A stretch of DNA of 64,000 bases from Thermodesulfobacteriota bacterium (lineage in GTDB: Bacteria; Desulfobacterota; Desulfobulbia; Desulfobulbales; Desulfocapsaceae), in the NCBI GenBank assembly GCA_034722915.1, contig JAYEOK010000168.1, positions 6,016 through 70,015 on the forward strand, given 5' to 3'. Position numbers and translations under genes: made by a program. Below, piece after piece: positions 52,659 through 64,000 of this stretch. The notes beneath the pieces are model-generated. The model was not told the origin of the DNA, did not search any database, and saw only the letters and a list, made by a program, of their open reading frames with translations. Numbering within the stretch: the first letter of the stretch is position 1; every line of letters starts with the position of its first letter.

Positions 52659-54020
52659 ATGGCAAAAAAACAGGAAATAGCCTTTGTCTGTACAGACTGT
52701 GGAGCGGATTTCAGTCGCTGGCTGGGACAATGCAGTGTCTGCAAAGAGTGGAATACAGTTAAAGAGGTACGTCTGGGGAAGATATCTGCAGGTAGAACAG
52801 TCGGCTACAGTGGCAAGCAAAGTAGTGTTCAGTTACTCTCTGAGGTTGACAGGAGTCAGGCAGAGAGACTTTCAACCGGTATTGCCGAGTTTGACCGGGT
52901 GCTGGGGCAGGGGATAGTCCGTGGATCTGTGGTTCTCATTGGCGGGGCACCGGGTGCCGGTAAGTCAACCCTTCTTCTGCAGGCTCTTGCAAAGAGTGCT
53001 GCATCCGGAATTCCGGTACTCTATGTTTCCGGTGAAGAGTCACCTCAGCAGATTGCTGAGCGGGCGGATCGTCTTGATCTTCCGGCAGATAATATCAAAA
53101 TGCTTGCAGAGACCTCGGTTGAAGAAATCTGTAAAGTGATGGATCAGGAGAGGCCGCAGGTTGTGGTGATTGATTCTATCCAGGTCGTACATTCAAGATC
53201 CTCTGAATCTGCGGCTGGTTCTATCTCTCAGGTGCGTGAATCTGCAGCAATTCTTACCCGGTATGCCAAAGAGACAAATACTTCCATTTTCATGGTTGGT
53301 CATGTAACCAAAGATCACTCTCTTGCCGGTCCCATGACACTAAGCCATATTGTGGATGCACAGGTAGTGCTCTCATCCACCGACGATGCCCGTTACCGAA
53401 TACTCCGCGCAGATAAAAATCGTTTCGGCAGCGTGGGAGAGCTGGGTTTTTTTGCCATGACCGACCGGGGCCTTAAAGAGGTGAAGAATCCCTCTGCCAT
53501 GTTTCTTTCAAGATCAGGGACACCGGCATCAGGTAGCGCAGTGACAGTGGTCTGGGAGGGAACCAGGCCTCTGCTTGTCGAAATCCAGGCACTGGTCACC
53601 GAAAGTCAGTCGGGCAATCCAAGGCGTCTTGCAGTTGGTATGGATCAAAACAGGATTGCCATGCTGCTTGCTGTCCTTGCTAAGCACGGTGGCCTTGCAA
53701 CGGCCAGTGATGAGGTGTATGTCAATGTTGTTGGCGGAATACGGGTGTATGAGACCAGTTCAGATCTTGCTGCAATGGTGGGCATTGTGTCCAGTCTCCA
53801 GGATCGGGTGATTCCAGCCGACTCATTATTTTTTGGCGAGATCGGACTCAGCGGAGAGATTCGGCCTGTTGCCAATGGTGAAGCCAGACTGAAAGAGGCT
53901 GCCAAGCATGGTTTTCGCAGGGCAGTGATCCCCAGGGCCAATGCTCCGCAACGCCCTGTAAAGGGGCTTGAGATTGTGGCTGTGGCCAGTTTGGTTGAGG
54001 CTCTGGAAGTATTATATTGA
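52659..54020 (+). CDS. radA: DNA repair protein RadA/Sms
   Basis: CTDCG...CSVC zinc finger, GAPGAGKST, KNRFG, Lon-like C-terminal GEIGLSGE. Confidence 0.97.
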   Translation: MAKKQEIAFVCTDCGADFSRWLGQCSVCKEWNTVKEVRLGKISAGRTVGYSGKQSSVQLLSEVDRSQAERLSTGIAEFDRVLGQGIVRGSVVLIGGAPGAGKSTLLLQALAKSAASGIPVLYVSGEESPQQIAERADRLDLPADNIKMLAETSVEEICKVMDQERPQVVVIDSIQVVHSRSSESAAGSISQVRESAAILTRYAKETNTSIFMVGHVTKDHSLAGPMTLSHIVDAQVVLSSTDDARYRILRADKNRFGSVGELGFFAMTDRGLKEVKNPSAMFLSRSGTPASGSAVTVVWEGTRPLLVEIQALVTESQSGNPRRLAVGMDQNRIAMLLAVLAKHGGLATASDEVYVNVVGGIRVYETSSDLAAMVGIVSSLQDRVIPADSLFFGEIGLSGEIRPVANGEARLKEAAKHGFRRAVIPRANAPQRPVKGLEIVAVASLVEALEVLY

Positions 54021-54085
54021 AAAAAATTGAAGTAACTGTTCAGGCCACTCCAAAATTGTTATTCTCGGACAAGCTCCTGGCAAAA

Positions 54086-54242
54086 GTAAATATTCGGGTT
54101 GAAGGAAAACTAGTGCTACAATCCATCAATTGTAAATGTTTGGATAGCACCCCAGGTTCGCTCAAGCCGGCTTGAGAGCTATATTGGTTCATATGCGAAA
54201 AAGCTGGATCGGGCGAAGATGGGGTGCTAGCCGAATATTTAC
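54086..54242. mobile_element. Family F MITE (12-bp TIR GTAAATATTCGG, 8-bp TSD)
   Basis: TGGCAAAA at 54078-85 and 54243-50; homologous to 52365..52520; lies just past a CTAG-family end (54060..54079). Confidence 0.9.
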
Positions 54243-54273
54243 TGGCAAAAAGGAAAATTCCTATACTGTCAAG

Positions 54274-54665
54274 CTACTTCCTGAACAACTCAGCGTGGGA
54301 TCCTGTTCGTTCCAGATACAAATCATCGGCGGTAATTCGATAAATCAGAAGCCAATCCGATTCAATGTGACAATCTCTGTGGCCTTTCCAGTTGCCGGTC
54401 AATGGATGATCTTTGTACTTTTGATCCAAGACCTGACCAGTGACCAGCAACTTGATGAGATCAGTCAATTTTTCAGGATTTTTATTCTGGCGTTTAGTGC
54501 CTTACTCCTCAAAAGCTGTCATAAAAAAACAAGAAAATGGAAAGTTCCATTAAAGTTAGCAGGTTAAACATACCAACAAGGCACTTATACCGGCCTCACT
54601 TACCGTTTACCGGTGTTAGTGCGTTTGTAATCTTTTTTGAATTGCGTAGTATAATGAATGTTCAA
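54274..54665 (-). pseudogene. yafQ: YafQ-type mRNA interferase toxin interrupted by a MITE stack
   Basis: Removing the 122-bp insertion restores 90 codons: (TTG)NIHYTTQFKKDYKRTKRQNKNPEKLTDLIKLL...DHPLTGNWKGHRDCHIESDWLLIY...TGSHAELF. Confidence 0.88.
54497..54615 (+). mobile_element. TTA-type MITE stack inserted in yafQ
   Basis: TTA at 54494-96 and 54616-18; body plus 28-bp tail. Confidence 0.9.
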
Positions 54666-54922
54666 CCGTTCAGCTCCTGAAACAGCTGCTCAACAGAATC
54701 CACGGTATGCATTTTTTTTCCATTTTTTGATTCTGTCAATGTTTTTGCTGTAAGATCATTGGGAATCCTAAGCTCAAAAGGAATGCCCTGATGCAGTGTT
54801 ATCTGGGAAAGATACATGGAAATGGCTTCAGACATGGTGATGTTGAGCTTATTTAAAACTTCCTGTGCATTCTTTTTTACGACCGGATCGACACGAGTTT
54901 GGATTGTTGCTGTTTTGATCAT
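54662..54922 (-). CDS. dinJ: RelB/DinJ-family antitoxin
   Basis: TIQTRVDPVVK, SEAISMYL, GIPFELRIPNDLTAKTL; stop overlaps the toxin start. Confidence 0.9.
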   Translation of the reverse strand: MIKTATIQTRVDPVVKKNAQEVLNKLNITMSEAISMYLSQITLHQGIPFELRIPNDLTAKTLTESKNGKKMHTVDSVEQLFQELNG

Positions 54923-55162
54923 GAGATTCTCCTATTGTTGGACTGCCGATGTGTGGACAATGTCACTACGTCTATACTATATTAATTGTAATTAGAAATA
55001 ACAAGGCTCAATTTTTTCACCACAGCCATTTTTTTATTATTTTTGCCTTTCCTTTACGACGCCATCATGTTTGAAAATGTGGTAAAATGTAGCCAAGGCG
55101 ATATTTTTGAATGCTAAGTAAAGACCCCATTAAAAAATTATACCCAAACAAGAGAGAGACAT

Positions 55163-55783
55163 ATGGATTTTAAAGCACATTTGAAAACTGCGTGGGAACA
55201 TACCCTGCAGTTTGTCGTACCGGTTATTCTACTTACTTTGGTTCAACTGGTGGTGATCACCTTAAGTTTCGGTATCCTGGCGCCTGTAACTTCTGCCAGC
55301 TATATGCAGTCCCTGCTTCTGGCAATGCGTGAGGGGCGGGAACCAAAAATTGGAGATCTCTTTTCCGAGATGCGTCTTTTTCTGCCTCTGCTGGTTTTTG
55401 GTGTTCTGGCCATGCTTGCTATCTCGCTGGGATTTATCCTTCTGATAGTACCAGGTTTTCTGGTCACTGGTTTTCTCGTCTTTGCCACCATTTACATGAT
55501 GCCGCTGATGACAGACAGGGGAATGGGCCTGGTTGATGCCTTAAAAGAATCCTGGAGCATGGCAGTGAAAAAACCTCTGACTGACCAAATGGTGCTCATG
55601 GCTCTGTATCTGCTGATTCTTTCAGTGGGCGGCTCTATCCCCATCGCTTTGCTTTTTGCCCAACCTCTTGCCACATTTTTTGTTCTGTCTGTTTACAGAG
55701 AACGATTGCAGGGAGGACAGGCAGCCATAGAGCAGGATTCCGCACCCCAGCCACCGCCACTTTCTTCTGATCACGAGGCCTGA
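55163..55783 (+). CDS. Hypothetical 4-5 TM membrane protein
   Basis: Hydrophobic segments; IGDLF, DALKESW; 9 bp upstream of the radical SAM fusion. Confidence 0.75.
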   Translation: MDFKAHLKTAWEHTLQFVVPVILLTLVQLVVITLSFGILAPVTSASYMQSLLLAMREGREPKIGDLFSEMRLFLPLLVFGVLAMLAISLGFILLIVPGFLVTGFLVFATIYMMPLMTDRGMGLVDALKESWSMAVKKPLTDQMVLMALYLLILSVGGSIPIALLFAQPLATFFVLSVYRERLQGGQAAIEQDSAPQPPPLSSDHEA

Positions 55784-55792
55784 GAATAATCA

Positions 55793-58700
55793 ATGGACAG
55801 TAAAAAGTTTACCGAAAGACATGGCTGGCAGCGTCTTGAATGGGAAGGGACCATTCTCTATGTTCAACCTGATATTCCTGACTGGATTGTTGTTTCAGAG
55901 AAAGCCGATCAATTACTCAGCTCAGAAGAGAGTACTTTTTCCGTTTTTTATGACAGAAATCTACTGGAAAGTGCTTTTGAGATGGAACCGCTGCAACCCT
56001 ATAGCGGGAGGGAACATGCACTGAGTTTAAAGCAGCTCAAGGAATGCTGGTTTCATGTGACTGATACCTGTAATCTCAGTTGTCGGCACTGCCTTTTTTC
56101 CGCATCTCCTGCAAAAACACGAAGCCTTGCCCCGGAACTTCTGCAGAACACGGTTCAGCAGGCGCTTGCTCTGGGATGCCGCCTTTTTTCCTTTACCGGT
56201 GGTGAACCGTTTCTTTATCCTGACTTCCTGCCATTTTTACGTACGCTTCTTGAAAAAAACAGGGATGTGCATGCAGCAGTGTTGACAAACGGCATGCTGT
56301 TGCATCAATTTCTGGATGAACTTGGTGATATGGACAGGCTTCATCTCCAGGTGAGTCTGGATGGTCTGGAGAAAAGTCACGACAGGCAGCGCGGAAGCGG
56401 CAGTTACCGGAAGCTCATGAAAAATCTTGTGGCCATGAAGGAGGCAGGAATTCCTGTCACACTTTCGGTGGCCATCAGTCGTGAGAATATTGATGATCTC
56501 CTGCAGGTAGTAGATATTGCAGCAGAGGTGGGGGCAGCCTCCATCCATCTTCTCTACCATTTTGTAAGAGGGAAGGGGAGTCGGGAGCAATTTATTACAC
56601 CGGATATCATTTTTCCACAACTTCTTGCAGCCTGGCGACGGGCTGTGGAGCTGGGTCTTAGCATCGATAATGTCGAGACCATGCGCAGCCAGATTTTTTC
56701 AACTCCCGGTACTCGTTACGATCTTTCCAATACGGGATGGGAGTCCGTGGCCATAGGGCCGGATGGTATTATTTATCCATCTCCTGCTCTGGTTGGCCTT
56801 GCGCAAACCGCCTGTGGTCATGTGGATGATGGACTGGAAAAAGTGTGGAAGACAAGCCCGCTTCTGAATAATCTGCGCAAGGCCAGCCTGATCAATTCTC
56901 CGGCCTATCAGGCAAACCCTCTGAAGTTTCTGGTGGGCGGCGGTGATACTGATCACAGCTTTATGTCCGGAGCCGATTGGGTGGGGCACGACCCTTATGT
57001 GGAGATTTATAACCGCATCGCTTTGCAGTTGATTTCTGATCAGGCCGGTCAATATACCGGTGAAGGGAAAAATGGGATTCTCCTGCGTATGGGGGATGTC
57101 CGACACGATTGCCTGGAGGATGAAGGGGAAAGCACTGAGGTGGCCCTGACGCACTGTAACTGTCTTATTTCCCTTGCCTCTGATGTTGGCCACAGCTCGG
57201 TACGGGAATTTTATGGTCAGGCAGCACTCACTGCAAATGAAGATATCGTCAATCCCCTGGCACCAGCCCAGGACGCAGCTGATTTTATTCCCGGAAAAAC
57301 AAAAAAGCACTCCTATGGCTGCGGCAGCCCTGTGACGGATGGCGCTCCCGGGGAAGGTGAGACGCTTGTTGATCTTGGTTCCGGTTCCGGAATCGAATGT
57401 TTCATGGCTTCTGCTTTGGTTGGCAGGAGTGGCCGGGTGTACGGCATAGACATGACCGATGAAATGCTCCGGCTGGCTGCGGAATCACAGGAAGAGGTTG
57501 CGGCGCGTCTGGGATATCAAAATGTGGAATTTCGAAAGGGCTTCCTGGAACAGATCCCATTGGATGATGGAACAGCAGATGTGGTGATTTCCAATTGTGT
57601 AATTAATCTTAGTCCTGATAAACGCATGACCTACCAGGAAATTTTTCGTATCCTGAAGCCGGGAGGCCGCCTGGTAGTATCTGATATCGTGACAGATACA
57701 GCAATTCCGGCAACAATCAGAAATAATGTCCGCTATCGTGGCGAGTGTCTTGGCGGGGCCATGCAGCAGGAAGAACTGGTGGCCATGATGGAGGCAGCCG
57801 GGTTTTCCTCCATCCGTTTTATAAAGCGTTTTCCGTATCGTCAGGTTGAGAATATGGATTTTTTCTCCCTTACCTATGAGGCAATTCGACCTGTTGCCTT
57901 AGAGGAGGCAATGGTGGATGTGATCTACAGAGGCCCTTATGGCGCGGTTTATACCGAGTCCGGGATTCTCCTTGTGAAAGGAAGACGCAGCTCCATTCCA
58001 TCAGGAGAGGTGGCTTTTCTTGACGATTCTCTCTTTGTTCTTGATGATAAAGGCGTTGTCACAAATCTGGAGATGGAGAATTCATGCTGTTCTCCACAAA
58101 CCGGGATAAGTGGAGTCGAGAGTAGCTGCTGTGGTCCGGAAAGCACAGATTGTTGCGGCAACCAGGAGAGCGGGTCTGCAACAGAACGAAAAAGTGAAGG
58201 CTGCATGGTTTGCGGTACTGAATTGCACTATTTTACCGATGCAAAAGAAATGTCCTGCAGCTATTGCGGGCGCACGTTTGCAAGCAATGGTTGCTGTGAA
58301 CAGGGTCACTTTATCTGCGACAGCTGCCATCGGGAAAACGGGATCGAAGTCATCAAAACCATCTGTACCGGAACTGCAGAAAAGGATCTCATCACTCTGC
58401 TCGAACTCATCCGCAGCCATCCTGCCATTCCCATGCATGGACCGGAACATCACGCCATGATCCCGGGGATTATCCTTGCCTGTTATCGGAACAGCGGAGG
58501 TGATATCACCAAAGAGGCCATTCTCACCGGCATCAACCGGGGTGCCGAGATCCCCGGCGGAGCCTGTGGCTTCTGGGGAGCATGCGGGGCAGCCATTGGG
58601 GCTGGCATTGCGGTTTCAACAATCCTTGCCGCCACACCTCTTACTCCGGCACCAAGACAGACGGCACAGGCTTTCAGCGCAAAGATACTTTCTGTTATTG

Positions 58701-58924
58701 CAGAGTACCGTGGTGGTCGCTGCTGCCAGCGGGAGACCTGGCTGGCTCTTTCTGAAACAGCCAGATTATCTGAAGAAATGCTTTCTGTTCCCATGGAGGC
58801 AAAAGGGATAATTCGCTGTGAGCAGTATTTGAGAAATAAGGAGTGTATTCGAAAGCAATGCCCTCTTTGGGACAATCGGGTAAAGAATCTCGAACCTGAA
58901 CTGCAGTTTCTTTCCATTCCCTGA
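55793..58924 (+). CDS. Radical SAM - ArsM-like methyltransferase - DUF5714-like Cys-rich fusion protein
   Basis: CNLSCRHC and FTGGEP (radical SAM); YGCGSP, VDLGSGSG, DMTDEM, SNCVINLSPDK, GECLGGA (ArsM); CC-rich linker; CMVC/CSYC/CDSC, MHGPEHH, CGFWGACGAA, GRCCQR (DUF5714-like). Confidence 0.85.
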   Translation: MDSKKFTERHGWQRLEWEGTILYVQPDIPDWIVVSEKADQLLSSEESTFSVFYDRNLLESAFEMEPLQPYSGREHALSLKQLKECWFHVTDTCNLSCRHCLFSASPAKTRSLAPELLQNTVQQALALGCRLFSFTGGEPFLYPDFLPFLRTLLEKNRDVHAAVLTNGMLLHQFLDELGDMDRLHLQVSLDGLEKSHDRQRGSGSYRKLMKNLVAMKEAGIPVTLSVAISRENIDDLLQVVDIAAEVGAASIHLLYHFVRGKGSREQFITPDIIFPQLLAAWRRAVELGLSIDNVETMRSQIFSTPGTRYDLSNTGWESVAIGPDGIIYPSPALVGLAQTACGHVDDGLEKVWKTSPLLNNLRKASLINSPAYQANPLKFLVGGGDTDHSFMSGADWVGHDPYVEIYNRIALQLISDQAGQYTGEGKNGILLRMGDVRHDCLEDEGESTEVALTHCNCLISLASDVGHSSVREFYGQAALTANEDIVNPLAPAQDAADFIPGKTKKHSYGCGSPVTDGAPGEGETLVDLGSGSGIECFMASALVGRSGRVYGIDMTDEMLRLAAESQEEVAARLGYQNVEFRKGFLEQIPLDDGTADVVISNCVINLSPDKRMTYQEIFRILKPGGRLVVSDIVTDTAIPATIRNNVRYRGECLGGAMQQEELVAMMEAAGFSSIRFIKRFPYRQVENMDFFSLTYEAIRPVALEEAMVDVIYRGPYGAVYTESGILLVKGRRSSIPSGEVAFLDDSLFVLDDKGVVTNLEMENSCCSPQTGISGVESSCCGPESTDCCGNQESGSATERKSEGCMVCGTELHYFTDAKEMSCSYCGRTFASNGCCEQGHFICDSCHRENGIEVIKTICTGTAEKDLITLLELIRSHPAIPMHGPEHHAMIPGIILACYRNSGGDITKEAILTGINRGAEIPGGACGFWGACGAAIGAGIAVSTILAATPLTPAPRQTAQAFSAKILSVIAEYRGGRCCQRETWLALSETARLSEEMLSVPMEAKGIIRCEQYLRNKECIRKQCPLWDNRVKNLEPELQFLSIP

Positions 58925-58972
58925 AATATCTTATTTATCCGAATATTTGTTTCTAAGCCGCCGTGGCAGTTT

Positions 58973-59005
58973 GTTTGTAATCCTTTTTGAATTGCGTAGT
59001 GTAAT
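58973..59005 (-). pseudogene. Fragment of a second yafQ 5' end
   Basis: 33 bp with 2 mismatches to 54623..54655; reads YTTQFKKDYK on the minus strand. Confidence 0.65.
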
Positions 59006-59309
59006 TCAAAAGCATAGGAATTTCCATTTTTGACATGATCGTCAGGATAAAAAATCTTGTAAATCTTGTTTATCCTGTCGAAAAAGTCCGCCAGCAGGGC
59101 GTTAAGTTGATAGCCCGTCGTCACCAGCACCATCTTTGTTTTCGTGTAATCAGCGGGCACGTGCAGAAGTAGGGAATAGGTCGCTTCTGAAAAAGATGTC
59201 CCGGAATTTATTTTCCGAGAAATGAATAAAGAGATCGACAAATTGTAATAAAATTGTTCATATACTCGTATGGGGCTGTTTGATAAATTTTTTTCAGGAG
59301 GAAAGTCAA

Positions 59310-59429
59310 ATGAGTGGACATGGACATGGGCATGAAAAACCGGAAGAAGATCATACCGTATGCATAAAAGTTGGTATCTTTTTTGTTTTTGTGATTATAG
59401 GATTTTTTGTGATCGGGATGATTAACTAA
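59310..59429 (+). CDS. 39-aa His-rich single-pass membrane protein (not in ORF track)
   Basis: AGGAGG RBS 8 nt upstream; MSGHGHGHEKPEEDHTVCIKVGIFFVFVIIGFFVIGMIN. Confidence 0.7.
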   Translation: MSGHGHGHEKPEEDHTVCIKVGIFFVFVIIGFFVIGMIN

Positions 59430-59483
59430 CACTGGTGATGAACGGTAAGCCATTGTAAAGAGTGCCAGGCAAGTGTTGTTTGT

Positions 59484-59517
59484 AAACCGTCAGAAGCGTG
59501 GCTTCTGACGGTTTTTT
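59484..59517 (+). terminator. Intrinsic terminator after the small His-rich gene
   Basis: AAACCGTCAGAAGC-GTG-GCTTCTGACGGTTT-TTT. Confidence 0.85.
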
Positions 59518-59525
59518 CTGTTTTA

Positions 59526-59710
59526 GTGCCTTACTCGTTAATTCCTGTCATAAAAAACAAGAAAATGAAAAGTTCGTTTAACGTTAGCAAGTTGAACATA
59601 CCAACAAGGCACTTATACCCCTCAAGGGGGTACTGCAAAGAGTGCCGGCCTCACTTACCGTTTACCGGTATTAGACTCCAGTGAACTTGATTGTTTCCAG
59701 TTGAACCGGG
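59526..59710 (+). mobile_element. TTA-type MITE stack with palindromic insert, followed by a degenerate 34-bp tail
   Basis: TTA 59523-25 and 59671-73; insert 59616..59642. Confidence 0.85.
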
Positions 59711-59723
59711 TGAGAGGAAGCGT

Positions 59724-60416
59724 GTGGCAAAAAAAAAGTTTTATGCAGTGGTTAGTGGGCTAAAGCCTGGGATTTATACTTCCTGGCCGGAAGCTGAGGC
59801 CCAGGTAAAGGGGTATGGTGGGGCAAAATTCAAAGGTTTTGCCAGCCGTGCTGAAGCTGAGGCCTGGATGGATAACCCTCCTGAGTGGCAGCAGAAAAAA
59901 AAGCCGGTAAAGAAAAAAACAACACCATATGAATCTCCGGTGGTTTCTGGTGATCGCATAGAGATTTACACCGATGGTGGTGCTATAAACAATCCGGGTC
60001 CCGGAGGATATGGTGTGGTTATTCTCGCAGAAGATACAATACGTGAACTTACCGGAGGCTACCTGCACACCACCAATAATAGAATGGAGCTTATGGCCTG
60101 TATTCAGGGCATTGAAGCTCTTCCTTCGCGCAAGAGAAAAGTTGCTCTTTTTTCAGACTCCAAATATGTGGTGAATGGGATCAGTAAGGGCTGGGCCCGG
60201 GAATGGCGCAAACGCGGATGGCTCAAATCTGACGGAAAACCTGCAGTGAATCCTGATCTCTGGGAGATGCTGCTGGATCTTACCCAGGGGCTTGATATTA
60301 GTTTTCACTGGGTGAAAGGCCATGCTGGTCATCCTTTGAACGAACGCTGTGATCAACTGGCTGTACAGAGTGCCAGGGGAGATGGTCTGGTGGAAGATTT
60401 CGGTTATAAGGGGTGA
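59724..60416 (+). CDS. rnhA: Ribonuclease HI with N-terminal hybrid-binding (caulimovirus VI-like) domain
   Basis: FYAVVSGLKPGIYTSW...FKGF; IYTDGGAINNPGPGG, TTNNRMEL, DSKYV, WVKGHAGHPLNERCD. Confidence 0.95.
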   Translation: MAKKKFYAVVSGLKPGIYTSWPEAEAQVKGYGGAKFKGFASRAEAEAWMDNPPEWQQKKKPVKKKTTPYESPVVSGDRIEIYTDGGAINNPGPGGYGVVILAEDTIRELTGGYLHTTNNRMELMACIQGIEALPSRKRKVALFSDSKYVVNGISKGWAREWRKRGWLKSDGKPAVNPDLWEMLLDLTQGLDISFHWVKGHAGHPLNERCDQLAVQSARGDGLVEDFGYKG

Positions 60417-63486: not shown

Positions 63487-64000
63487 ATGACACATACCAT
63501 ACATTTTTTACCCGATGACGTCCATGTCACTGTTGAGGAAGGAGAAAACCTGCTGACTGCTGCAGCATCGGCAGGTATCTATATTCATGCCTTCTGCGGT
63601 GGAGATGGTGTTTGCGGAAAGTGTAAAGTGAAGCTGGAGCAGGGAAGTGTGGACTCCGACAGTGCCGCCAGCCTGAAACAGAGTGAGTATGATGAAGGGG
63701 TGCGCCTGGCCTGTAAATCCAAGGTTGTTTCCGATATAACAGTTCGTATACCGGATCTGGTGAAAGCTGATGGAAAAGCGCTGAAACGTGCACCGAAAAC
63801 CACCCGATCCATTTCAGCCAGATCCCTTGAATCACTTATTGGAACATGGGATGTAAATCCACCGGTGGGCAAGGTTTTTCTCAAAATCCCTCCTCCAACT
63901 CTGGACGACAATATCTCTGACATGCAGCGTTTGATGCGTGCCCTGAAAAATGCCTACCCCGATAATCCCGAGCCCAGCTACGATCATCCTGAACTTATCC
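63487..64000 (+). CDS. N-terminal part of a 2Fe-2S ferredoxin-domain protein, probably ASKHA/DUF4445 (RACo-like); runs off the window
   Basis: MTHTIHFLPDDVHVTVEEGENLL...CGGDGVCGKCKV...RLACKSKV, then PPTLDDNISDMQRL. Confidence 0.8.
   Translation, partial: MTHTIHFLPDDVHVTVEEGENLLTAAASAGIYIHAFCGGDGVCGKCKVKLEQGSVDSDSAASLKQSEYDEGVRLACKSKVVSDITVRIPDLVKADGKALKRAPKTTRSISARSLESLIGTWDVNPPVGKVFLKIPPPTLDDNISDMQRLMRALKNAYPDNPEPSYDHPELI

Follow-up and report, generated by a model that had tools for sequence, protein, structure and literature searches.

ArsM enzymes methylate thiol-bound As(III), and their catalysis leaves a disulfide in the enzyme that thioredoxin must reduce. To our knowledge, only two radical S-adenosylmethionine (SAM) enzymes, ArsS and ArsL, make carbon-arsenic bonds other than methyl ones. 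ArsS adds the 5'-deoxyadenosyl radical to trivalent dimethylated arsenic (DMAs(III)), yielding 5'-deoxy-5'-dimethylarsinoyladenosine (DDMAA) (PMC13598754). ArsL transfers a 3-amino-3-carboxypropyl group to As(III), after which ArsM methylates the product. Here we describe a gene from a Thermodesulfobacteriota bacterium, located in a 64,000-nucleotide stretch of contig JAYEOK010000168.1 that was analysed as a whole (hereafter, the window), whose product joins a radical SAM domain, an ArsM-like methyltransferase and a DUF5714 domain in a single polypeptide of 1043 amino acids (aa). Our genome comparisons indicate that, in many bacteria that avoid oxygen, this triple fusion stands in for ArsS and ArsM of the 'arsenosugar' gene set. 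We put at roughly 0.55 the probability that it is the core enzyme of a variant ArsS/ArsM organoarsenical ('arsenosugar') system, in which methylation and radical carbon-metalloid bond formation are carried out by one polypeptide.

Translation of the window yields an ATG-to-stop open reading frame (ORF) of 1043 codons with no internal stops, in agreement with the single intact ORF described in an earlier note on this DNA, and every motif listed in that note is present in the order given. The radical SAM part contains CNLSCRHC (residues 93-100) and GGEP (136-139), and the methyltransferase part contains YGCG (508-511), SNCV (600-603) and GECLGG (650-655), followed by the Cys pairs SCC (764-766), SCC (778-780) and DCC (786-788). 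Towards the C-terminus lie CMVC (804-807), CSYC (822-825), CC (834-835), CDSCH (842-846), GPEHH (883-887), CGFWGACG (925-932) and RCC (976-978). Pfam recognizes Radical_SAM (PF04055; residues 89-241, 9.8e-25), Methyltransf_31 (521-670, 6e-31) and, over all of its length, DUF5714 (PF18978; residues 854-1026, model positions 1-173 of 173, 2e-61, 206.9 bits against a cut-off of 26.2), while the top NCBIfam match is the arsenite methyltransferase model PRK11873 (residues 483-685, 221.5 bits, cut-off 263). These matches agree with the three-domain reading proposed earlier and with its DUF5714-like end. The full-length AlphaFold2 (AF2) model has a mean predicted local distance difference test score (pLDDT) of 71.8 and a predicted TM-score (pTM) of 0.59.

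The same set of Pfam domains was found in a protein collection in more than 120 full-length clusters, 1022-1110 aa long and 55-89% identical. A pattern scan with one genome per species additionally returned at least 491 DUF5714 loci, of which 80 were kept; about 60 of these 80 encode all three domains in one ORF. The carriers belong to the Desulfobacterota, Campylobacterota, Planctomycetota, Acidobacteriota, Bacteroidota and other phyla, and they include complete chromosomes and cultured strains or isolates (Desulfogranum japonicum DSM 18378, Sulfurospirillum arcachonense DSM 9755, Desulfurivibrio dismutans, Hydrosulfovibrio ferrireducens and Maridesulfovibrio). In an alignment of 58 sequences, C93, C97, C100 and G136-G137-E138-P139 of the radical SAM domain are invariant, as are C510, C602 and C652 of the methyltransferase, H454-C455-N456-C457 and C765-C766 of the linkers, and 14 Cys and 4 His residues of the C-terminal module. 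Judged by this sequence conservation, the three-domain architecture is far beyond chance. Within the literature library that was searched, no paper mentions DUF5714 or the triple-fusion architecture. One copy of the fusion, 79% identical, is filed under 'Methanococcoides sp. SA1' (P0017), probably through wrong binning of a bacterial contig and not because an archaeon has the gene.

To identify families that recur near the fusion, the ORFs of the 80 loci and of the window were clustered and counted within four genes of the focal gene. Two transferase families stand beside the fusion in at least ten taxonomically diverse loci: TIGR04282 (DUF2064/CofC-like; 190.7 bits against a cut-off of 134) and TIGR04283 (glycosyltransferase family 2, GT2; 193.4 bits against 182, and 211 for the fused form), both of which bear the NCBI name 'arsenosugar biosynthesis glycosyltransferase'. 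Also recurrent are DedA/VTT, DUF3047, a PRK06370/MerA-like FAD disulfide reductase, a rhodanese and a dicluster protein. ArsS loci of the same phylum carry a matching accessory set (TIGR04282, TIGR04283, DedA, DUF3047, FAD disulfide reductase and rhodanese; examples in Table 1), and these shared accessory genes place the triple fusion and ArsS in one kind of cassette. In both systems, an ArsM-type methyltransferase is also accompanied by a radical SAM enzyme.

Other families of the same phylum encode natural ArsS::ArsM fusions of 662-692 aa (about 670 aa; L099:4796-6802 in G150:C22, L100:4556-6544 in G156:C4, and another in G126:C12). In these proteins ArsS is N-terminal and the ArsM-like domain, which keeps its N-terminal CC pair, is C-terminal, the same order as in the triple fusion. 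They contradict the earlier note's statement that the radical SAM partners of ArsM are encoded separately.

To compare the distributions of the two systems, we used 201 genomes drawn evenly from the phylum of the window. DUF5714 in a long ORF occurs in 15 of them, phylogenetically scattered over 12 families; TIGR04283 occurs in 98 and ArsS (TIGR04167) in 72. All 15 fusion genomes contain TIGR04283 (Fisher p=1e-5), as do 69 of the 72 with ArsS. The distributions of ArsS and the fusion are complementary: among the 98 TIGR04283-positive genomes they overlap in 1, with about 10.6 expected (p=3e-8). Similarly, another 36 fusion genomes, drawn from several phyla, include 3 with ArsS and 33 with TIGR04283 (28 over the cut-off). 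When the profile genomes were searched with the radical SAM half of the fusion, this type was found only in the 15 fusion genomes and in one genome with a two-domain form. Some fusion genomes carry a canonical ArsM in addition.

In the sampled phylum, about one in three ArsS genes has a single in-frame TGA (e.g. G148:C1:205884-206777 and G020:C108:4694-5596), consistent with a selenoprotein form of ArsS. Several ArsM-like genes likewise have one in-frame TGA; the triple fusions have none.

The genome from which the window derives is estimated to be 99.9% complete and is assembled into 332 contigs. TIGR04282 (208 bits) and TIGR04283 (241 bits) are adjacent on contig C251 (Table 1), DUF3047 lies on C30, and an orthologue of the reductase, 62% identical, lies on C33. 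This genome has no ArsS, its top TIGR04167 match being the fusion itself (54 bits), and no second ArsM-like gene, which leaves the fusion as the sole candidate for the radical SAM and methyltransferase functions of the cassette. The transferase pair adjoins rmlA and rmlD (dTDP-rhamnose synthesis), with fpg two genes away. The fusion gene of Desulfurivibrionaceae relatives is directly followed by fpg (L004), so an ancestral cluster seems to have been scattered.

Taken together, the neighbours and the profile point to a substitute core enzyme of the named ArsS/ArsM and TIGR04282/TIGR04283 cassette rather than to the wholly new pathway that the earlier note had envisaged. Its prediction of an organo-metalloid enzyme gains from the link to the ArsS cassette, and also from the ArsM-type Cys residues and the phylogeny of the methyltransferase.

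The central domain resembles ArsM and AS3MT (CmArsM, 4fr0/4kw7; CrArsM, 5evj; human AS3MT, 8xt7) in its class I fold, its C-terminal domain and three Cys residues. Phmmer searches against PDB sequences returned CrArsM 5evj (5e-38), CmArsM 4kw7/4fr0 (2e-33) and human AS3MT (2e-32), with the CrArsM and CmArsM alignments spanning residues 463-709 of the fusion, and Foldseek matched the domain to ArsM/AS3MT at about 1e-14. C510 (YGCG), C602 (SNCV) and C652 (GECLGG) align residue by residue to Cys72, Cys174 and Cys224 of CmArsM. The three ArsM-type Cys contexts that had been noted earlier thus stand as matches to the CmArsM ligands; the fourth canonical ArsM Cys, which is N-terminal, is missing at its homologous position. 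The fusion further differs from ArsM/AS3MT in that its methyltransferase is embedded between two extra domains, and in having no ars operon.

A maximum-likelihood (ML) tree of 69 methyltransferase cores was built with IQ-TREE, with ultrafast bootstrap and SH-aLRT supports (UFBoot/SH-aLRT), from 35 triple fusions, 16 canonical NF008823-type ArsMs, ArsS-linked and ArsS-fused ArsMs, two-domain radical SAM-methyltransferase proteins, the CmArsM and CrArsM sequences taken from the phmmer alignments, and two distant methyltransferases as outgroup. The triple-fusion methyltransferases form one clade (92/96) within a super-branch (75/97) that also holds CmArsM, CrArsM and the ArsS-fused and ArsS-linked ArsMs; CmArsM and CrArsM group with the ArsS::ArsM fusions (100/100). 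The canonical NF008823 clade (89/89) is sister to the super-branch, and the outgroups fall outside (96/88). On this phylogeny, in which the key branch has moderate support, the methyltransferase domain is inside the ArsM radiation and bracketed by experimentally proven ArsMs; a position outside the ArsM clade had been named beforehand as grounds for abandoning the idea.

The radical SAM half has another origin. Its invariant CxxxCxxC and GGE motifs, its PF04055 match and its fold matches to a partial TIM barrel place it in the radical SAM superfamily. Foldseek with the full-length AF2 model returned, as best matches of residues 1 to about 470, the SPASM maturases of RiPPs and anaerobic sulfatases CteB (5wgg/5why), anSME (4k39), SkfB (6efn), SuiB (5v1s) and PqqE (6c8v), with TM-scores on the target of 0.56-0.74; the CteB alignment, about 460 columns long, takes in the N-terminal part of that enzyme as well. 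The fusion is like these enzymes in fold and in its N-terminal beta3-alpha domain. In that domain W12 and P29-D30-W31 are invariant, and its modelled topology may resemble the peptide-recognition domain (RRE/PqqD-like) of SPASM maturases. We keep this assignment tentative because a Pfam search with the isolated N-terminal 86 aa gave no PqqD or RRE match, although distant two-domain homologues of the radical SAM half still match PqqD (PF05402).

The fusion differs from the SPASM maturases in the segment that follows the radical SAM core. Pfam SPASM scores 13.6 bits there (cut-off 21.5), the auxiliary-cluster Cys residues are replaced by Ser, Val and Asp, so that the ligands required for auxiliary [4Fe-4S] clusters are lacking, and C341 is the only invariant Cys in residues 301-435. 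NCBIfam models of SPASM-type maturases match the radical SAM part at about 65-90 bits, against cut-offs of 265-650. The domain is likewise distinct from ArsS: hhalign relates it to the ArsS core with a probability of 98%, at 24% identity over 139 columns, and its architecture is SPASM-derived. We therefore rejected its identification as ArsS or as any named SPASM maturase, all models being far below their cut-offs, and conclude that the domain derives from SPASM-type maturases. More distant members of the radical SAM family keep SPASM and PqqD Pfam matches, and the nearest SPASM enzymes without this association (MftC-like) are about 28-30% identical.

Two Cys-containing linkers and the DUF5714 module complete the protein. 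The linker between the radical SAM half and the methyltransferase is predicted to be disordered (pLDDT <50 at residues 439-455 and 458-490), as is much of the Cys-pair linker (pLDDT <50 at 766-802), in which C765-C766 is the sole invariant pair. In the C-terminal module, CxxC...CxxC and C-x3-H-x2-C-x2-C-H precede DUF5714 itself (GPEHH, GGxCGxxGxCG, RCC, C...C...C). Stand-alone DUF5714 homologues of about 240 aa have an identical invariant Cys/His pattern. NCBIfam MbdU (NF045648, 'metal-binding double selenoprotein') matches residues 760-1030 at 138.7 bits, against a cut-off of 600. Compared with stand-alone DUF5714 and MbdU, the fusion has the domain at full length, joined to two enzymes, and with no in-frame TGA it is not a selenoprotein. 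The RCC pair presumably corresponds to the 'CU' (Cys-selenocysteine) motif of MbdU, a correspondence we take from the name of the family. Modelled alone with 34 homologues, the module reached a pLDDT of 90 and a pTM of 0.86 in AF2, and Foldseek of this model against 350,542 PDB chains gave no fold match (best E 1.2). In the fusion, the DUF5714 module occupies the place that in ArsS belongs to a Cys-rich C-terminal domain, to which it is unrelated; the alternative that DUF5714 is a diverged ArsS C-terminal domain was rejected (hhalign probability 0.2%).

Each of the modules is also found in other combinations. With the radical SAM half as query, a large family of radical SAM plus ArsM-like proteins of about 790 aa (615-830) without DUF5714 was recovered (examples in Table 1), together with stand-alone versions of the radical SAM enzyme (470-550 aa) and radical SAM plus DUF5714 proteins of about 720 aa that lack a complete methyltransferase (P0281, P0287, L043). 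These two-domain combinations show that the three modules combine freely. A stand-alone relative of the radical SAM half heads an operon with the order rSAM-DUF547-DedA-reductase-GT87-like-TIGR04282::TIGR04283, and two Bacillota loci encode the trio as separate, neighbouring genes for radical SAM/SPASM, DUF5714 and ArsM-like methyltransferase proteins, one of these loci also containing a thioredoxin-thioredoxin reductase fusion and DUF302.

The contexts of stand-alone DUF5714 are mixed: two are the split trios, three or four are DVU_1553-type ligase clusters and the rest are uninformative. Given this heterogeneity, DUF5714 is a general accessory module that is not exclusive to the pathway considered here. 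At L057, L091, L085 and L043, a stand-alone or radical SAM-fused DUF5714 adjoins an AMP-dependent ligase of the DVU_1553 family (479 bits against 300), and the same neighbourhoods encode a 747-aa pyridine-nucleotide-disulfide-oxidoreductase/dicluster protein, a distinct conserved context.

Relative to ArsS and ArsM, the fusion is new in its independently recruited radical SAM domain, its three-Cys ArsM and an added domain of unmatched fold. A second comparison is with ArsL and the ArsM of arsinothricin synthesis, which are alike in that a radical SAM enzyme makes the carbon-arsenic bond and ArsM methylates afterwards, an order that would suit a three-Cys ArsM. ArsL is set apart by its description as a noncanonical radical SAM enzyme that transfers the 3-amino-3-carboxypropyl group. 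The methyltransferase of the fusion scores 173 against 500 bits for the arsinothricin ArsM, and its context is the transferase cassette instead of arsQML.

From these comparisons we propose a route in which the substrate, a trivalent metalloid held by thiols and most probably As(III), would be bound at C510/C602/C652 and methylated with SAM. By analogy to ArsS acting on DMAs(III), the radical SAM domain would make a 5'-deoxyadenosyl radical that adds to the arsenic. Adenosylation may precede methylation, as when ArsL acts before ArsM, and the reverse order is also possible. A radical step first, giving an organo-As(III) intermediate, is suggested because the first ArsM Cys is missing and three-Cys ArsMs favour organo-As(III). 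The 2017 work of Chen et al. on Aspergillus fumigatus ArsM is said to have found that three-Cys ArsMs methylate trivalent monomethylated arsenic (MAs(III)) and not As(III). The linker residues C440 and HCNC are a candidate substitute for the missing Cys, or a candidate ligand set together with C341. The Cys-pair linker and DUF5714 may form a built-in thiol/disulfide relay or a metalloid hand-over site, which would be re-reduced by the partner flavoprotein (MerA-like) disulfide reductase or, in the split cluster, by thioredoxin-thioredoxin reductase; the recurrence of these reductases fits the need to reduce the ArsM disulfide. Finally, the CofC-like and GT2 transferases, with DedA, would turn the adenosyl-arsenical into a product linked to a sugar or a lipid.

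Several observations weigh against the fusion as core enzyme of a variant arsenosugar system. On the side of the cassette, the 'arsenosugar' names of TIGR04282 and TIGR04283 rest on co-occurrence with ArsS; the profile statistics (p=1e-5 and p=3e-8) are uncorrected for shared ancestry; and the two radical SAM types fail to explain all TIGR04283-positive genomes, neither being present in 13 of the 98. In the window, the fusion is unlinked to the transferase genes and lies among housekeeping genes, with no arsR, acr3 or arsC nearby, as the earlier note had already remarked. Its own genome has no Acr3 (best match 61.6 against 282.8 bits) and no ArsB, so a simple resistance picture does not fit and arsenic is at most the probable element.

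Other points against it concern the domains themselves. The TIGR04167 (ArsS) model reaches 53.9 bits on the fusion, against a cut-off of 300 and over model positions 4-147 only, and the ArsS-type Cys-rich C-terminal domain (MCR...YDCDFN...HCFGCTAG) is absent, the hhalign match being confined to the core. The structural relatives of the radical SAM domain abstract hydrogen from peptides, and its chemistry could differ from that of ArsS. The cut-offs of the curated ArsM models exceed the scores obtained (NF008823, 221.5 against 263; NF038099, 117.1 against 400; NF040538, 173.3 against 500 bits). Cys44 of CmArsM, which is needed for the first methylation of As(III), has no counterpart: residues 458-509 of the fusion contain no Cys, no invariant Cys occurs there across the 58 homologues, the Cys-containing stretch of CrArsM is opposite a gap, and the invariant HCNC (454-457) lies outside the aligned methyltransferase domain, about 50 residues upstream. 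ArsS-fused ArsMs, in contrast, keep this first conserved Cys. Lastly, biochemistry of any member of the family was not found in the literature search.

The best surviving rival explanation keeps the cassette and changes the substrate, which would be antimony, selenium, tellurium or a thiol- or persulfide-bound species and the product, for example, a seleno- or thio-sugar or lipid. The missing arsenite pumps and ars genes would be expected on this account, and a detoxification trait would seldom be so common (TIGR04283 in 98 of 201 genomes) or lie so often in housekeeping surroundings. The fusion repeatedly has rhodanese and disulfide reductases as neighbours, and each part has selenoprotein relatives (ArsS with in-frame TGA; the MbdU and ArsM selenoprotein families). 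However, each of the three Cys residues has its exact counterpart among the As(III) ligands of CmArsM, in the tree the methyltransferase lies between enzymes proven to methylate As(III), and there is no positive evidence for any other element. Moreover, ArsS, the enzyme replaced, acts on DMAs(III) (PMC13598754). We consider a substrate other than arsenic unlikely.

A plain arsenite methyltransferase for detoxification or volatilisation, with the radical SAM and DUF5714 parts as mere helpers that supply electrons or act as an arsenic chaperone, and with methyl groups as the sole carbon-arsenic bonds made, is improbable. It would account for ArsM/AS3MT being the best matches of the central domain in sequence and structure, for vicinal Cys pairs that resemble metallochaperone-type As(III) binding sites, and for stand-alone DUF5714 in the absence of radical SAM. 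Yet the cluster and SAM motifs of the radical SAM domain are invariant across phyla, which argues for catalysis, and the context is no ars operon. A plain ArsM would not be expected to be so tightly tied to the transferase pair or to exclude ArsS, and canonical ArsM forms a separate clade that is additionally present in some fusion genomes.

It is more improbable still that the fusion is a maturase of the type that modifies ribosomally synthesized peptides (RiPPs), acting on a Cys-rich peptide, possibly its own Cys-rich linker or C-terminal module, with no metalloid involved. The structures closest to the N-terminal half (CteB, SkfB, SuiB, anSME, PqqE), the RRE-like topology of the N-terminal domain and the PqqD and SPASM matches kept in distant homologues would all suit such an enzyme, and in Thermoanaerobacterium the neighbouring radical SAM protein resembles maturases of Cys-rich peptides. 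Against it stand the lost auxiliary-cluster Cys residues, the arsenic-binding triad kept by the methyltransferase, and neighbours that encode redox proteins and sugar/nucleotide transferases instead of the transport or protease functions of RiPP loci. Nor did any small ORF family that could encode a precursor peptide recur next to the fusion when ORFs of 70 aa or longer were compared across the 80 loci. An assembly chimera or decaying pseudogene has practically no standing despite the fragmented assembly, since an identical domain order in the more than 120 clusters from independent assemblies, complete chromosomes and isolates excludes the former, which the earlier note had itself named as grounds for refutation, and the intact frame with dozens of invariant residues in all three domains rules out the latter.

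Beyond the variant ArsS/ArsM system, a bolder joint reading can be put forward tentatively, in which the fusion is a self-contained 'assembly line' for a carbon-metalloid compound, with a radical step unlike that of ArsS or ArsL, a DUF5714 relay and a product that is a normal constituent of the cell. The metalloid would stay thiol-bound and be passed between HCNC and the ArsM triad, the Cys-pair linker and DUF5714, and the last of these would represent a new fold for metalloid-thiolate chemistry or disulfide relay. Together with DedA and the two transferases, the enzyme would produce an organoarsenical linked to a membrane or to a sugar, which many anaerobes would contain as a normal constituent rather than as a product of detoxification; the absence of an arsenite pump in this genome would be consistent with this.

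In the window, the upstream housekeeping genes are gatB, radC, a hemW-like gene, a class II aldolase, two lipoproteins, adenylate cyclase, CysZ/EI24 and radA, and downstream of the fusion lie RNase HI, rsmE, prmA and a RACo-like gene. The gene for a 206-aa membrane protein that ends 10 nt before the fusion is probably co-transcribed with it. This protein has no Pfam family, with weak matches to UPF0259 and GPDPase_memb only, and its family stands upstream of the fusion only in the closest (Desulfocapsa-like) relatives (L001, L013, L015, L016). Promoter-like matches in the region are not above shuffled expectation, and the site given in Table 1 is a consensus match only. An Rfam search of positions 54000-60000 found no riboswitch or small RNA.

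Table 1. Coordinates of the features of the fusion gene and its surroundings in the window, and of related loci in this and other genomes
Feature	Position	Strand	Basis or details
Whole gene, radical SAM/ArsM-like methyltransferase/DUF5714 fusion, 1043 aa	55793..58924	+	intact ORF, Pfam, NCBIfam, conserved architecture
N-terminal domain, aa 1-80, three beta-strands then helices	55793..56032	+	AF2 secondary structure
Radical SAM core, aa 84-300; C93-x3-C97-x2-C100 (56069-56092), GGEP 136-139	56042..56692	+	Pfam PF04055, fold matches
Degenerate SPASM-like segment, aa 301-435 (GPDGIIYPSP..., FLVGGGDTDH)	56693..57097	+	Pfam SPASM sub-threshold
Inter-domain linker, aa 436-467; invariant C440 and H454-C455-N456-C457	57098..57193	+	58-sequence alignment
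ArsM-like class I methyltransferase and ArsM C-terminal beta domain, aa 468-760	57194..58072	+	phmmer, NCBIfam, Foldseek, tree
Cys-pair linker, aa 761-802 (SCC, SCC, DCC), disordered	58073..58198	+	sequence, AF2
C-terminal module, aa 803-1030, Zn-ribbon-like part and DUF5714	58199..58882	+	Pfam PF18978, NCBIfam
206-aa multi-pass membrane protein, ends 10 nt before fusion	55163..55783	+	ORF call
Best sigma-70-like promoter match, upstream of two-gene unit	54954..54983	+	10/12 hexamer matches
Strong intrinsic-terminator-like hairpin, 14-bp stem and T-run	59484..59514	+	first + strand hairpin after fusion
TIGR04282/TIGR04283 pair	G000 contig C251:22735-24007 (L092:8736-10017)		own genome
ArsS locus	L104		ArsS-TIGR04283-DUF3047-TIGR04282-DedA
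ArsS locus	L101		DedA-ArsS-TIGR04283-TIGR04282
ArsS::ArsM fusion locus	L100		ArsS::ArsM fusion, rhodanese, TIGR04283, dicluster::DedA, TIGR04282
ArsS::ArsM fusion locus	L099		DUF3047 ... reductase, then ArsS::ArsM fusion
Two-domain radical SAM plus ArsM-like protein	L097:2456-4942 (G014)		
Two-domain radical SAM plus ArsM-like protein	L098:1899-3746 (G055)		
Two-domain radical SAM plus ArsM-like proteins	P0250-P0275		

Between the fusion and RNase HI, a 49-aa ORF (59280-59429, +; MINFFQEESQMSGHGHGHEKPEEDH... then a hydrophobic helix) precedes the strongest terminator-like hairpin of the region; its Pfam matches are weak and sub-threshold, and two relatives (L001, L002) have small genes of 37-41 aa at the equivalent place before RNase HI. 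Only doubtful ORFs (54172-54567, +, TTG start; 54662-54922, -) and no Rfam match were found in the roughly 1.1 kb that separate radA from the 206-aa membrane gene (54021-55162). At the end of the window, a partial ORF (63487-63999, +) that runs off the edge encodes a 2Fe-2S ferredoxin domain and a RACo linker (reductive activator of corrinoid proteins-like).

If the fusion is the core enzyme of a variant ArsS/ArsM system, its family would be a third, independently recruited route to non-methyl carbon-arsenic bonds. ArsS and the fusion together account for 85 of the 98 profile genomes with the transferase cassette, and synthesis of organoarsenicals or related organo-metalloids may be widespread in anaerobic sulfur- and metal-cycling bacteria, which would bear on arsenic speciation in sediments, paddy soils and aquifers. 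For DUF5714, a domain without known function or structural relative, the fusion provides a functional anchor, and the cultured strains that carry the gene allow a direct test.

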